From positions 1 to 58,301 of the forward strand of contig CALGTL010000030.1 in assembly GCA_937901475.1 (NCBI GenBank): 58,301 bases of DNA. The letters are read 5' to 3'. This stretch comes from an uncultured Dehalococcoidia bacterium (GTDB taxonomy: Bacteria > Chloroflexota > Dehalococcoidia > Lucifugimonadales > Australimonadaceae). The notes under the pieces are model-generated. The model saw only the letters and a list, made by a program, of their open reading frames with translations, did not search any database and had not been told where the DNA came from. Made by a program: the position numbers and the translations under genes. Shown here piece after piece: positions 9,518 to 50,069 of this stretch (positions are counted from its first letter, which is position 1; each line of letters begins with the position of its first letter).

Positions 9518-10913
9518 GCGGTCGTACCTCAATCACTATCGACCGCGTCGCTGCGGTTGTTACTTTCGCCCAATCGGCGATTTGCACTCCCGGGACCCAA
9601 GCGATCTTCTCCCCTGCTGTGACCAACGGTATGTTGTTTCTTTGGGACCGCGGGACCTTCGCGTTGACCAGGACATCTTGAAGCCTGACTTCTTGGTTCA
9701 TCCCTAACGGATGGAATCGATCTCCTTTGGCACGAGAACGAACGCAGACTTTGTCGCCTAACGCATCTGGATTTAAAATTGCTCGCCACGCGTCGCTATT
9801 GACCGAACCAGAGATTTCGATGCGCGCCGTAATCCTCCAAGACCCCGCGACTGCCTCGCCTGGCACAGGTAGAGTTATGGGCGCGAACGGTACTGGCGTG
9901 ATGATCCCAGTCGATAGCGCCGCCGTGTCGTGCTCCACTGTAAAGCTCCACCCACTTCCGAGGTTCACCGCGCCGCTGCCACGGGTCAGCAATCGACTCA
10001 TCGATTTGATTTGTGCCCGTGAGAGAGCAGCGCCGTCGCCGCTGAGGATGCCCCATGCTAATTGCCACACCCTTGCTAGAAGCGGAACGGGTAGCTCTCG
10101 AAGAGAATGAACAGGCCAAGTGATTCTCCCGGGCTCCCGTTGCTCGACTTCTGCTACGGCTTGTGAGGCCAACTGCACTAGCAGATCATCATCTTCCTGT
10201 GCTGTATCAGCGAAGGCCGCTAACGCATGAGGGACGTCGGGGTTGATTTCTGCGAGTTGCGGTAGTACTCGCAGGCGTACGCGATTTCGCGCGTAACGTA
10301 CCGAGCGATTTGTACCATCGGACGCAGGCGTCAAGTGCCACTCCGCGCAGACTTTTGAAGTGTCACCTCGTGTCGCGCCAAGCATTGGACGTAAGAGTGC
10401 GATGCTTTCGCCGTTGACTTTTCGTTGGGAGAACTCCCGAATCGCGCCCGCACCACGCAGCCCCGTGCCACGACTAAGGCGCAGAATCAACGTTTCAGCT
10501 TGGTCATCCTGCGTATGGGCGGTCGCCACCAATGCTGCATCGCGTAGCGTTGCGACACGACCGAAGAACGCGTAACGCGCATCCCTCGCGGATGCCTCGG
10601 ATGGCCCTGTTGCTGCTTGCTCGTGCTCTAGAGGTAAATTAAAACGCTTGCTAATTCGTCGTACCAGTGCGGCTTCACGGCGCTCGGCGCTCTTGCGCAA
10701 ACCGTGGGAGAAATGTGCCACGATGATCTCGCGCCCAAGCGAAGCACGTACGGTCGCGGCCGCAAGCAGCATCGCCAGTGAATCAGTGCCGCCCGACACG
10801 GCAAGAACTAAGGGCCCCGCACCCTGGCCCTCAGCGTGACGTCGAAGCACTCGAAGAATCAATTGGCCGAGCCGCACCGTCTCAGGTTTCGGGCCTTGTA
10901 GCTGAAACACCAT
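9510..10913 (-). CDS. tilS: tRNA(Ile)-lysidine synthetase
   Basis: Carries the PP-loop motif LVLAVSGGTDSLAML. I place the start at ATG 10913 (MVFQLQG...), which lies 5 nt downstream of the stop of the preceding gene. The longer track ORF (to 11021) would overlap that gene. Confidence 0.85.
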   Translation of the reverse strand: MVFQLQGPKPETVRLGQLILRVLRRHAEGQGAGPLVLAVSGGTDSLAMLLAAATVRASLGREIIVAHFSHGLRKSAERREAALVRRISKRFNLPLEHEQAATGPSEASARDARYAFFGRVATLRDAALVATAHTQDDQAETLILRLSRGTGLRGAGAIREFSQRKVNGESIALLRPMLGATRGDTSKVCAEWHLTPASDGTNRSVRYARNRVRLRVLPQLAEINPDVPHALAAFADTAQEDDDLLVQLASQAVAEVEQREPGRITWPVHSLRELPVPLLARVWQLAWGILSGDGAALSRAQIKSMSRLLTRGSGAVNLGSGWSFTVEHDTAALSTGIITPVPFAPITLPVPGEAVAGSWRITARIEISGSVNSDAWRAILNPDALGDKVCVRSRAKGDRFHPLGMNQEVRLQDVLVNAKVPRSQRNNIPLVTAGEKIAWVPGVQIADWAKVTTAATRSIVIEVRPLS

Positions 10914-46847: not shown

Positions 46848-47245
46848 TATTTCTCGCTTTCTTCTGGGATGGCCAATGACACACGCCCAATCAGTGCTCG
46901 CTCACTTGCAACTTCGGCGAGAATCTCCAATGCCAAGAACCGGGTACCGCGCCGCAAGCTGTTCTGTACCACCTTCGCAGCGCAATTCACCTCTGACCCC
47001 ACGCCTATAGGCGCGTGGAAATTCAGTTCTTGTCCCGTGTGCACTGCCCCCGATGGCAGCTGTATCGCTTTCAAAGCTTCGCCCATAACTAAGGCAGCTA
47101 CCGCCATAGGAGGCGCGATGCCTTGAATGGCGTATGCATCGCTATGGTCATCAACCGCATCTAGATAACTATTGATTGCGTCGCTAGTTATAGTTATTCG
47201 CCGTGAAAACAATTCGTAGCCGGGCTCCAACGCAGCGAGATCCAT
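46847..47245 (-). CDS. hotdog-fold protein, MaoC-N/HadA-like non-catalytic partner
   Basis: 132 aa with a hotdog-like pattern but no D-x-N-P-x-H motif. Its TAA overlaps the ATG of the catalytic subunit (TAATG), implying translational coupling. Confidence 0.6.
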   Translation of the reverse strand: MDLAALEPGYELFSRRITITSDAINSYLDAVDDHSDAYAIQGIAPPMAVAALVMGEALKAIQLPSGAVHTGQELNFHAPIGVGSEVNCAAKVVQNSLRRGTRFLALEILAEVASERALIGRVSLAIPEESEK

Positions 47246-47794
47246 CCAGGCACCTTAATATTGTTGATTCGAGTATCGCAATTATAGCTCCGGCGACGCA
47301 TTGAGCGCGGAACGCTAGAAATAGAATGTGTGAGATATAACCTTGGCAAAGCAGACCATTCTCCAGGAATGGAATTGCGATACCGAGCTCAGGTGCAATC
47401 AGAAATTAAACAAAAAAAAGAGCAAGATGCCCAGGAGTCAACCTTTGCTGCAAGCGTATCTATTGAGTGCAGACAGTGGTTGGAGAATGCCTGCTGGGAC
47501 TCGGAATCAAAGAGCTGCTTCGACGTAAGGCCTTGCAAAGGAGGCGGTTTTCGAAACTTCCGCATCCAATCTGAATCCTGATCAATAATCAGCAACTGAT
47601 CAATGCGATAGCCTAACTATGATCTAAGTTATTAACGCCTCCTGAGCCAGGCCATTGCGCAAATATTTCAGTCAAGGAGGCAAACGTGCAAGGCTTTCAG
47701 GTGCGCCATTTGTCACGTGGACACCACCCGAACGATGAGCATTCAACGCAAGACGTGCGTAGAATGCAGCCAGACTCTAGTCGTGGAGTGGAAG

Positions 47795-48106
47795 ATGGAA
47801 CTGGAAGAATACCTCGCGATTCCGTACAAACTGATTATGGAGTCGTTCGAAGGGCCTGATGGCGACTGGCTGCGCCGCGCTTCCTACCCTGAGCTTCCCG
47901 GTTGCGATGTTGAAGGCCTCTGGGCGGTGGATGTCGTCGAAGCACTTGAAATACTTCGAATCGAACTCATCACCGAGCGTTTCAAACAGCACGAGTTTAT
48001 TCCCGTCCCTCGCCCCCCTCTGAGATCGCATGGACCGATTCTCGACATGAACAAGCTTGATTTCGCTAAGTACCTCGTTGCACAGGGCAAGATAAGCGAA
48101 GGGTAG
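47795..48106 (+). CDS. HicB-like (UPF0150) antitoxin-fold protein
   Basis: The sequence YKLIMESFEGPDGDWLRRASYPELPGCDVEGLWAVDVVEALEILRIELITERFKQHEFIPVPRPP follows the HicB N-domain pattern (PxLPGC..G.t.eEA......i......G..iP.P). ATG 47795 has a GGAG about 10 nt upstream; the track ORF starts at GTG 47717. Confidence 0.55.
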   Translation: MELEEYLAIPYKLIMESFEGPDGDWLRRASYPELPGCDVEGLWAVDVVEALEILRIELITERFKQHEFIPVPRPPLRSHGPILDMNKLDFAKYLVAQGKISEG

Positions 48107-48305: not shown

Positions 48306-48339
48306 CTTGAGTACGAGTACTAGCCTCACTCGTACCAAG
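48306..48339 (-). terminator. hairpin plus short U tract downstream of the DsbA-like gene
   Basis: CTTGaGTACGAGT (48306..48318) pairs with ACTCGTACCAAG (48328..48339), giving 12 bp with one bulge. On the minus strand it is followed by TTTTGTG. Confidence 0.5.
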
Positions 48340-48451: not shown

Positions 48452-49114
48452 CTAGAGAACCCGCTTGATTCCCTCGAACGCTTTTGGGTCTTTCTCAAGG
48501 AGACTTACTGCACGGTCAGCGACTTGGCGGAAGACCTCCATCGGCTGAGCACCGGTGAACTTCACGTCTCCGATGATAAATGCGGGGATACCTTGGAATC
48601 CATTGTCCAGACCATCTTGGAAGTCTTCCATTATTGTGTCCAGGTATAAATTCGTCTCAAGGACAAGCTTCAACCCCAACCATTCAAGACCCACTGCTTC
48701 GGCGATCTCTTGCAGGACAACCATCTCACCAACGTCACGCTTCTCTTCCCAGTAAGCCGAGTAGAGCGCGTCCCGCATCTCTTCTCCTTTACCTTGCCCC
48801 TTGGCGAATTCGATGGACTGCAATGCCTTTAGCGAATTGGGTCTACGGTCCGGCCTTCTCATCTCCGTTAGCCCCGCATCCATAGCGACGGCCTGGAGGT
48901 GAGAGGATAACTCTCCTAGTGCCTCGCCGGGCCGTTGCTGGCGCTCCTCCCCTTCGGGTGGCGTATCAGGACGGAGAAGATAAGCCTTCTCCGTTACCTC
49001 TATGTTGTACTCCTGAGCGAGCGCTTTCAGCCTGGCCAGGCCGACGAAACACCACGGTCAGACAATGTCAGACCAGATAGTTACGGGAATCGGAGGAATA
49101 TCAGCTTGATTCAT
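48452..49114 (-). CDS. DsbA/FrnE-like thiol oxidoreductase with in-frame UGA (candidate selenocysteine) at the first position of the CxxC motif
   Basis: On the minus strand, ATG lies at 49114..49112 and a single in-frame TGA at 49060..49058. The frame is the same as the track ORF 48452..48883. Translation reads MNQADIPPIPVTIWSDIV-U-PWCFVGLARLKALAQEYNIEV..., so U replaces the first Cys of the family signature SD.xCPWC[YF]xG. Total length is 220 aa, which I believe is typical for the family. Confidence 0.75.
49022..49051 (-). promoter_or_regulatory. SECIS-like stem-loop downstream of the in-frame UGA
   Basis: On the minus strand the upper stem CGGCCU (49043..49038) pairs with AGGCUG (49033..49028) around a GGCC apical loop. 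A lower stem UGUUU(49051..49047)/AAGCG(49026..49022) plus the pair U49044-A49027 extends it, with a 2-nt bulge (49046..49045). The loop starts 20 nt after the UGA. Confidence 0.5.
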
Positions 49115-49266
49115 GAGCGGCATTATACGTCTGCTCACGATAGCAATTGCATATGGCATGAGGCGCTAGATGACCGGTATAGTCTGAGCATGGAAATTAT
49201 GAGTGTTCATTCGAATGGCCCACTAAGACAACATGTGGCATGACTATGAGGAACTCATGAATCAAA

Positions 49267-50069
49267 ATGAGGAGCGTGAACGTGAGCGATGAGTTATTGG
49301 TCCGACGCTCGGGCCAAGCCGCGATCGTGGTGATCAACCGACCTGACCAGCGCAACGCTATCACCTATGAAATGTGGCGGCAGTTCCCTGCGATTCTCGC
49401 CGAGCTGGACGCCGACCCTGAGATTCGAGTGGTCTTGGTTACCGGAGAAGGCGACCGTGCCTTCTCCGCAGGCGCGGACATTAAAGATTTCAAGAAACGC
49501 GCAGCACCCCTGAGAAATCGCGCAACTATCGAGCGAGCGTCGAAGCCGCCTGTGAGGCTCTAGCAAATCTTGGCAAACCTAGTATCGTTGTTCTTCGTGG
49601 CTACTGCATAGGCGGCGGCTTCGAGCTCGCAATCCACGCTGACATCCGTGTTGGAGATGATACCGTGCAAATAGGTCTTCCTGCTGCAAAGCGTGGAATA
49701 GCTATCGGGCATGCGTTCCTGTCTCGCCTAGAGCACCTCGCAGGTGCCGCTAACACCAGCTATATGCTACTCAGCTCGCGACTTATGTATGCTCCTGCAG
49801 CCTTCAACGCAGGATTACTTAGCGTCGTTACCTCTCCCGCAGACCTGGACGCTTTCGTAGATGATTTGGTCAGCGACATAGCGCAGAACTCCCCAGTGTC
49901 CCACCGGATGCACAAGGCCGCCATCGCTGATCTTATTGAGTACGGTTCACTGGAGCTGATTCCTCAAGGCCGCCGTGACCTGCAGTCGACATCGGAGGTT
50001 AGTGATGATTTCCTGGAAGGCGTTCGCTCGTTCGTTGAGAAGAGAAAACCCAATTTCCCCGGACGCTAG
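49267..50069 (+). pseudogene. enoyl-CoA hydratase/isomerase (crotonase) family gene interrupted by a frameshift
   Basis: Frame A (49267..49563) reads ...VINRPDQRNA...VVLVTGEGDRAFSAGADIKDFKKR and then runs to TAG. The family continuation ...STPEKSRNYRASVEAACEALANLGKPSIVVLRGYCIGGGFELAIHAD... is in the -1 frame, which is open from 49485. The two parts overlap at 49485..49563. Confidence 0.75.

Follow-up and report, generated by a model that had tools for sequence, protein, structure and literature searches.

On the minus strand of contig CALGTL010000030.1, from an uncultured Dehalococcoidia bacterium, a gene for a thiol-disulfide oxidoreductase of the FrnE subfamily of DsbA-like proteins is interrupted by one in-frame TGA. 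The window analyzed here is the whole stretch of 58,301 nucleotides (nt), and the full coding sequence (CDS) occupies 48452..49114 (minus), with 220 codons followed by a TAG; tblastn matches in other species extend over residues 1-220. Between the ATG at 49114..49112 and the TAG at 48454..48452, translation of this frame meets a single internal stop, the TGA at 49060..49058. This is what a first-pass annotation of the DNA had claimed, and its remark that only 143 amino acids of the gene are reported agrees with the mechanical list of open reading frames (ORFs), where a truncated ORF at 48452..48883 (minus) is the sole part of the gene. The gene is real but miscalled, and from the comparison of sequences we consider it very probable that its TGA is read as selenocysteine (Sec) by means of a hairpin of the selenocysteine insertion sequence (SECIS) type. 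The ATG (49112..49114, minus) lies 18 codons before the Sec codon, and an ATG is found at the same spacing in the orthologous loci L004, L005, L007, and L008.

The peptide around the TGA reads MNQADIPPIPVTIWSDIV on its N-terminal side and PWCFVGLARLK on its C-terminal side, with IWSDIV-TGA-PWCFVG as the core. Read as Sec (U19), the TGA (49058..49060, minus) replaces the N-terminal nucleophilic cysteine (Cys) of the CPWC redox motif, which is the position that had been proposed for it from the DSBA/FrnE signature. In the alignments, U19 stands opposite the first Cys of CPWC, namely Cys22 of Deinococcus radiodurans FrnE (drFrnE; IWSDIV-U-PWCFVG against IWSDIA-C-PWCYIG), and it is also opposite a Cys in six full-length Cys homologs and opposite the TGC of the ortholog L011. 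The TGT at 49049..49051 (minus) encodes Cys22, the resolving Cys of U-P-W-C and the sole Cys in the product; PWC is invariant in 80 of 80 orthologs. The redox centre would be Sec19-Pro-Trp-Cys22.

A Pfam search with the 220-amino-acid product, Cys having been put at the TGA, matched DSBA (PF01323), with residues 11-197 of the 220 covered (E=6.1e-29; score 101.6 bits, cutoff 25.6). The top match among solved structures was drFrnE (5cnw/5cp1; E about 1e-20, residues 6-194). The codon for Pro177 lies at 48584..48586 (minus) in a GIPAF motif, and the P177 column is invariant in the protein alignments; we place this residue in the loop that, in proteins with a thioredoxin fold, carries the cis-proline and faces the active site. 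The N-terminus, MNQADIPPIPVTIW, was judged by inspection and has ten polar or proline-rich residues ahead of strand beta-1, with no hydrophobic h-region seen. The product is probably cytoplasmic.

Conservation of the TGA among orthologs

Orthologs were surveyed by a scan at one genome per species, which gave 80 loci, all from Chloroflexota/Dehalococcoidia/SAR202 metagenome-assembled genomes (MAGs) and with 42-86% amino acid identity to the window. The tblastn matches in the 80 loci continue through codon 19, and in the DNA this codon is TGA in 79 of the 80 species and TGC in one (L011). The UPWC motif is unchanged in all 79 TGA-bearing orthologs. An in-frame start lies 15-31 codons before the TGA in 79/79 loci with enough contig; L053, where the contig ends 9 codons upstream of the TGA, was left out of this count. 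Past the TGA, the frame stays open for 185-208 codons in 80/80, and no other stop or frameshift interrupts it. The first-pass annotation had advised that relatives be surveyed for the codon, for scattered disruptions, and for the hairpin. Scattered disruptions were not seen in the 80 loci, and the hairpin described below is present in all TGA bearers and lost in the one ortholog with Cys.

The segment ahead of the TGA is informative in its own right. Its residues follow the pattern V.VW.D.[IV] with synonymous variation in the codons (GAC/GAT for D, TAC/TAT for Y, and ATT/ATA/ATC for I), which indicates that the segment is translated in the same frame as the sequence beyond the TGA. A search of a protein collection returned 104 relatives. 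The closest 70 (P0001-P0070) share 34-100% identity with the query, and every one is a call of 135-192 amino acids that lacks its N-terminus, the window's own call (P0004) among them; full-length CPWC proteins appear only at about 30% identity. The expectation that standard gene callers would truncate the gene is thus borne out in every one of these 70 proteins, and we read them as the footprint of a clade in which gene callers halt at a conserved in-frame stop. Closer to the window itself, three metagenome contigs from three samples (L001-L003) are 100% identical to it over 321 nt that cover the start codon, the TGA, and the hairpin.

The sole TGC ortholog is found at 10001..10639 of L011 (SAR202 cluster bacterium K_Offshore_80m_m2_034), where the hydratase neighbor described below is kept. 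Its hairpin is lost: the corresponding sequence, GUGGGCGAGGCACGGCUGA, folds with -3.8 kcal/mol. This ortholog also has R in place of an otherwise invariant W five residues before the Cys codon. In a neighbor-joining tree rooted with Cys-type FrnE homologs, L011 falls inside the Sec clade, which points to a secondary replacement of Sec by Cys. Judged from its sequence, L011 looks like a natural Sec-to-Cys reversion accompanied by decay of the SECIS.

The hairpin downstream of the TGA

The upper stem-loop of the SECIS-type element lies at 49027..49044 (minus) and consists of a 5' arm UCGGCCU (49044..49038), a loop GGCC (49037..49034), and a 3' arm AGGCUGA (49033..49027). It has 7 bp, its stem begins at the 14th nt after the UGA, the distance from UGA to loop is 20 nt, and its folding energy is -8.9 to -9.7 kcal/mol. 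The geometry given in the first-pass annotation (14 nt to the upper stem, a GGCC loop, and 20 nt to the loop) is the one that folding recovers. The published criteria for a bacterial SECIS (bSECIS) are a loop of 3-9 nt, an upper stem of 4-16 bp, a G in the first two loop positions, a distance of 16-37 nt from the UGA, and a minimum free energy (MFE) of -7.5 kcal/mol or below (PMC13188914). The window's upper hairpin alone falls within all of them, with 7 bp, a 4-nt loop starting GG, 20 nt, and -8.9 kcal/mol, and this supports the proposal that the hairpin is a bacterial SECIS. In the MFE structure, a lower helix (GGUGUUU / AAAGCGC) is predicted to extend the element to 49020..49053 (minus). 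Within the window's clade, many of the 17 species but not all have such a lower stem in their predicted folds, without conservation of its sequence; it may belong to the element, with weaker support.

The same element recurs across the family, and the 62 species outside the window's clade have a corresponding hairpin that shows covariation. Local folding of nt 13-40 after the UGA gave a hairpin of 6-10 bp in 79/79 TGA-bearing orthologs, with energies of -5.7 to -14.5 kcal/mol (median -9.7). The loops begin 19-21 nt after the UGA, and a G is found within the first two loop positions in 73 of the 79.

Three comparisons address whether the hairpin is more than a by-product of the protein sequence. 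When the window's 15 codons were recoded synonymously, none of 300 recodings gave as good a fold (z=-2.9). For the family as a whole, z averaged -1.2 in this test, with 84% of values below zero, and the Cys ortholog gave +0.5. At conserved residues, codon identity in the window's clade (17 species) was 0.86 in the hairpin versus 0.47 in the rest of the gene, and in the other 62 species it was 0.75 versus 0.49. The hairpin codons GGC CUG GCC AGG CUG are nearly invariant in the window's clade, AGG being used for Arg in 17/17; the other 62 species keep their stem codons fixed (0.77-1.0) and vary freely at the two loop codons (0.35-0.49). Covariation was assessed in 52 distinct sequences, in which 88% of cells pair versus 24-44% for slid partners. 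Double-sided changes occur at three pairs (G-C/A-U five times, C-G/U-A six times, and C-G/G-C), and none of 500 shuffles matched the observed covariation score, which is to be read with the phylogenetic relatedness of the sequences in mind. The hairpin is under selection at the RNA level, beyond the protein code.

How the TGA is decoded

Several results weigh against decoding of the TGA as Sec through this hairpin. The window's fold is unexceptional when compared with dinucleotide shuffles (z=-1.48), a statistic that proved uninformative for this hairpin and for which the synonymous-recoding, codon-identity, and covariation tests were substituted. A strict bSECIS matcher that allows no bulge passes 38 of the 80 orthologs (versus 8% of recoded controls); the remaining orthologs need one bulge or mismatch, and in these the hairpin is still present by local folding. 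In six orthologs the minimum-energy fold has UCU as its loop, unless the closing pair is opened. No Rfam match was found in the whole window at gathering thresholds or in 48900..49200 at E<=10, and Rfam matching is not the published test for bacterial SECIS elements. The machinery for Sec was also looked for near the gene. ARAGORN, run on the window and on 60 of the 80 ortholog loci, found no tRNA-Sec, and tblastn with E. coli queries found no SelA, SelB, or SelD in the window and 1.4 Mb of ortholog flanks. With about 2% of a genome covered, this absence is weak evidence. The only SelB matches, five weak ones, proved on translation to be the C-terminal half of EF-Tu.

The literature supports the use of Sec by the lineage at the level of the class. 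In BSepDB, two Dehalococcoidia MAGs are among the ten bacteria richest in selenoprotein genes (49 and 46), entry to the database calls for at least two Sec-pathway genes per species, and one of the two MAGs belongs to the same UUID-named series as many of the loci studied here. Taken with the conservation of the codon and of the hairpin, the comparative evidence supports the selenoprotein interpretation that the first-pass annotation had put forward.

The alternative that survives best, and one that we still regard as improbable, is that the UGA is decoded but not as Sec. It could be a sense codon, as in the code variants that read it as Trp or Gly, or a near-cognate or dedicated tRNA could insert Cys at a site marked by the hairpin in a cell without the Sec pathway. 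The absence of Sec machinery from the covered sequence is what such a reading would predict, and the inserted residue is not decidable from sequence alone. A change of code is at odds with the way TGA is used elsewhere. Among the 44 window ORFs of at least 150 amino acids, 26 end in TAG, 11 in TAA, and 7 in TGA (the window has a G+C content of 54.9%, and its stop usage is skewed to TAG). Well-supported genes are among those that TGA ends, including some with ATGA-type overlaps with the next gene and some with complete Pfam matches to PlsX, PAP2, and UbiA/CtaB. TGA also ends 22 of the 80 orthologs of the selenoprotein gene itself, at the conserved C-terminus. These stops exclude a genome-wide reassignment, in line with the argument of the first-pass annotation that TGA is a normal stop in this DNA. 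As for insertion of Cys or another residue at the marked site, what defines Sec is this combination, a UGA in place of a catalytic Cys and, at the canonical distance from it, a hairpin of the SECIS type; the class is also reported to have Sec-utilizing, selenoprotein-rich genomes.

We find it very unlikely that the short protein is the product, with translation beginning past the TGA and the upstream 18 codons and the hairpin serving as a leader or regulatory element. Gene callers do find downstream starts, from which the calls of 135-192 amino acids arise. However, these starts lie at differing, non-homologous positions between species, and a protein made from them would have neither strand beta-1 nor any of the redox motif. 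Upstream of the TGA, the codons change synonymously and preserve the amino acids (V.VW.D.[IV]), and orthologs of a distant clade have a Shine-Dalgarno sequence before the upstream ATG.

Even less can be said for a pseudogene, in which a nonsense mutation from TGC or TGT to TGA would have inactivated a Cys-type FrnE gene and left the 143-amino-acid ORF as a remnant. Such a mutation is a single step, and local defects do occur, as in the neighboring enoyl-CoA hydratase gene with its 1-nt deletion. Nevertheless, 79 of 80 species share this TGA across 42-86% protein identity, without another stop or frameshift; the sequence on both sides of it is under purifying selection, and the downstream hairpin is kept with compensatory changes. 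Divergence among the orthologs excludes recent copies of one sequence, and the ortholog survey refutes the pseudogene. A sequencing or assembly error that hides a true TGC or TGT has a negligible chance of being correct: base-level accuracy is imperfect, since the window and L001 differ by indels elsewhere, but the three identical contigs were assembled independently from three samples, and the TGA is found in 79 other genomes.

Proposed mechanism

In the mechanism that we propose, the UGA at codon 19 would bypass termination, with the hairpin 13 nt downstream acting as a bacterial SECIS. The hairpin, present on the mRNA as the ribosome reaches the UGA, would recruit SelB-GTP-Sec-tRNA(Sec), and Sec would be inserted. 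It would then be the N-terminal, solvent-exposed nucleophile, located where helix 1 of the thioredoxin fold begins. The presence of Sec is expected to raise nucleophilicity and lower the pKa. In catalysis, Sec would attack substrate disulfides (or sulfenic/oxidized thiols), and resolution would proceed via a selenenylsulfide with Cys22. Sec at the attacking position of UxxC is usual in thiol-oxidoreductase selenoproteins (2005 Sargasso Sea study). The C-terminal CxxxxC relay of Deinococcus FrnE is absent, and for that reason the oxidized enzyme would be re-reduced by an external reductant, e.g., thioredoxin/thioredoxin reductase.

The frame, the domain, the match of Sec to Cys, the conservation of the UGA throughout the lineage, and selection on the hairpin as RNA are seen in the sequences; we infer the dependence on SelB, the incorporation of selenium, the cytoplasmic location, the reductase/isomerase direction, and the physiological substrate. 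A cytoplasmic reducing or isomerizing role is more likely than disulfide formation.

Relation to known systems

COG2761 is the FrnE-type COG. The 2005 Sargasso Sea metagenome study reported a "DsbA-like protein, COG2761, UxxC" among its new selenoprotein families, represented there by nine sequences with a predicted SECIS; this bears out the mention, in the first-pass annotation, of Sec-containing DsbA-like proteins in marine metagenomes. The family was known from four genomes in 2006 and from 41 organisms in a 2016 survey, and a 2026 review of the prokaryotic selenoproteome lists a "DsbA-like protein form 1 (PF01323, UxxC)". The gene studied here shares with this family the DSBA domain, the Sec in first position of UxxC, the SECIS-like hairpin directly downstream, and a marine metagenomic origin. 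Published examples of the family are AACY01178397, NIP15863.1, and MDP6049977.1, and we assign the gene to the family by its domain and motif. The D16-I-V-U-P of the window is compatible with the motifs of both published forms, and its neighbor is a crotonase-family gene. NCBIfam has no model for the family; the best match of the product reaches 30.7 bits, against a cutoff of 190, to NF041057, "Rcas_1661 family thioredoxin-like (seleno)lipoprotein", a model named for a seleno-lipoprotein of Roseiflexus (Chloroflexota). With this locus, a known selenoprotein family gains a further member that had gone unannotated, in a lineage whose richness in selenoproteins has been reported before; neither a new mechanism nor a new selenoprotein family comes with it.

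Among characterized proteins, the closest point of comparison is drFrnE (DR_0659), a disulfide reductase/isomerase of the cytoplasm that confers protection from cadmium, diamide, and oxidative stress. The two have in common the IWSDI-x-CPWC-[YF]-[IV]-G context and a thioredoxin fold with a helical insertion; drFrnE has no signal peptide, and on inspection the product seems to have none either. They are about 30% identical and differ in that the product has Sec for Cys22 and lacks the C-terminal CxxxxC, which in drFrnE helps regenerate the active site; the window's clade instead has its own conserved C-terminal tail (DPxAF...RVL). The CxxxxC is found in many, not all, FrnE proteins. For example, it is absent from the FrnE of S. 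roseofulvus and D. maricopensis, and the motif is therefore not strictly defining for FrnE. Periplasmic DsbA of the E. coli type belongs to the same Pfam clan and has a thioredoxin fold with a helical insert, and weak sequence matches to DsbA entries in the PDB cover the C-terminal half. Unlike the periplasmic enzyme, with its CPHC motif, the product has UPWC, belongs to the FrnE subfamily and not to the secreted oxidases, and shows no signal peptide on inspection.

The hairpin can be compared with the SECIS elements of E. coli fdhF and fdnG and with the consensus bSECIS. Like these, it lies within the CDS just past the UGA, with a spacer of 12-13 nt to the upper stem. It further resembles the consensus in its upper stem of 6-10 bp, its small apical loop starting with GG or with G plus another base, and its 19-21 nt to the loop (range 16-37). 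In contrast to the fdhF and fdnG elements, with which there is no sequence similarity, a bulge or mismatch is required in about half of the orthologs, and UCU loops occur in six.

Because gene calls are truncated at the UGA and NCBI has no model for the family, a redox enzyme that bears its active site is systematically recorded as an inactive fragment in marine Dehalococcoidia/SAR202 genomes, and standard pipelines will go on mis-annotating it. The 79 Sec orthologs and the one Cys reversion with hairpin decay make up a clean natural data set on the maintenance of a SECIS inside a CDS. The gene also adds to the evidence of wide selenium use in an abundant deep-ocean bacterial lineage.

Transcription and genomic surroundings

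Located 7 nt ahead of the ATG, a TATAAT box at 49122..49127 (minus) may serve as the -10 element for a transcript without a leader. It was missed by the promoter scan because no -35 is present. The same box stands at the same distance in L004, L005, and L007-L010 (as TATACT in L007). No Shine-Dalgarno sequence was found before the window's ATG, and distant-clade orthologs have GGAGG-type sites; this suggests a leaderless mRNA in the window's clade. If the mRNA is leaderless, the SECIS would lie within the first 90 nt of the transcript. At the other end of the gene, a terminator-like hairpin with a T-run lies at 48310..48336 (minus), about 115 nt past the stop, although its support is weak, one such site being expected by chance in the stretch. 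The selenoprotein gene appears to be monocistronic.

The divergent upstream neighbor encodes an enoyl-CoA hydratase, and downstream come a hypothetical gene that is conserved, two genes for MaoC-type dehydratases, plsX, and an SDR gene. The hydratase gene of the window (49267..50069, plus) is split into ORFs at 49267..49563 and 49665..50069, which match positions 7-66 and 120-250 of the ECH_1 profile. The split is due to a 1-nt deletion (CC to C) at 49490/49491; the otherwise identical contig L001 has the gene unbroken. Either the window's assembly contains an indel at this point or the frameshift is specific to the strain. Adjacency to a hydratase/isomerase gene is kept in 13 loci of the window's clade, including L004-L007, L010-L014 (among them the Cys ortholog L011), and L016-L018. 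The hydratase gene is divergent in most of these loci, and in L007 it is in tandem with a 22-nt gap.

This arrangement raises the idea that Sec-FrnE is not a generic disulfide reductase but works specifically with the crotonase-family enzyme encoded next to it, in the catabolism of acyl-CoA or of aromatic/alicyclic compounds by marine Dehalococcoidia. The adjacency survives the change from divergent to tandem orientation, and Sec-FrnE is near-universal and lineage-defining (79 of 80 species); we nonetheless hold such a partnership to be doubtful. In the distant clade, an SDR gene directly follows the selenoprotein gene in six loci (L020, L021, L022, L024, L025, and L072), about 625 nt past the TGA. 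EF-Tu lies about 9.4 kb upstream in five of these six SDR-linked loci, the exception being L021.

L004 and L005 share synteny with the window for about 10 kb, with nucleotide identity of 73-79%, which indicates that the window comes from a related but distinct Dehalococcoidia species. A scan of all in-frame TGAs with open flanks brought up a second selenoprotein candidate at 47194..47616 (minus) with the motif CTU; it is not conserved in the loci and was rejected. Convergent with the selenoprotein gene is an ORF of 129 amino acids at 47717..48106 (plus). It has no Pfam match, and it is conserved at 70-86% identity beside the ortholog of the selenoprotein gene in L004, L007, and L010, so that it is probably a real gene. 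Finally, window positions 47958..48042 and L001 positions 1843..1934 do not align over about 85-90 nt in the intergenic or ORF-47717 region, the rest being 99.6-99.9% identical apart from a further 6-nt indel downstream, and this stretch is a small hypervariable or misassembled segment.

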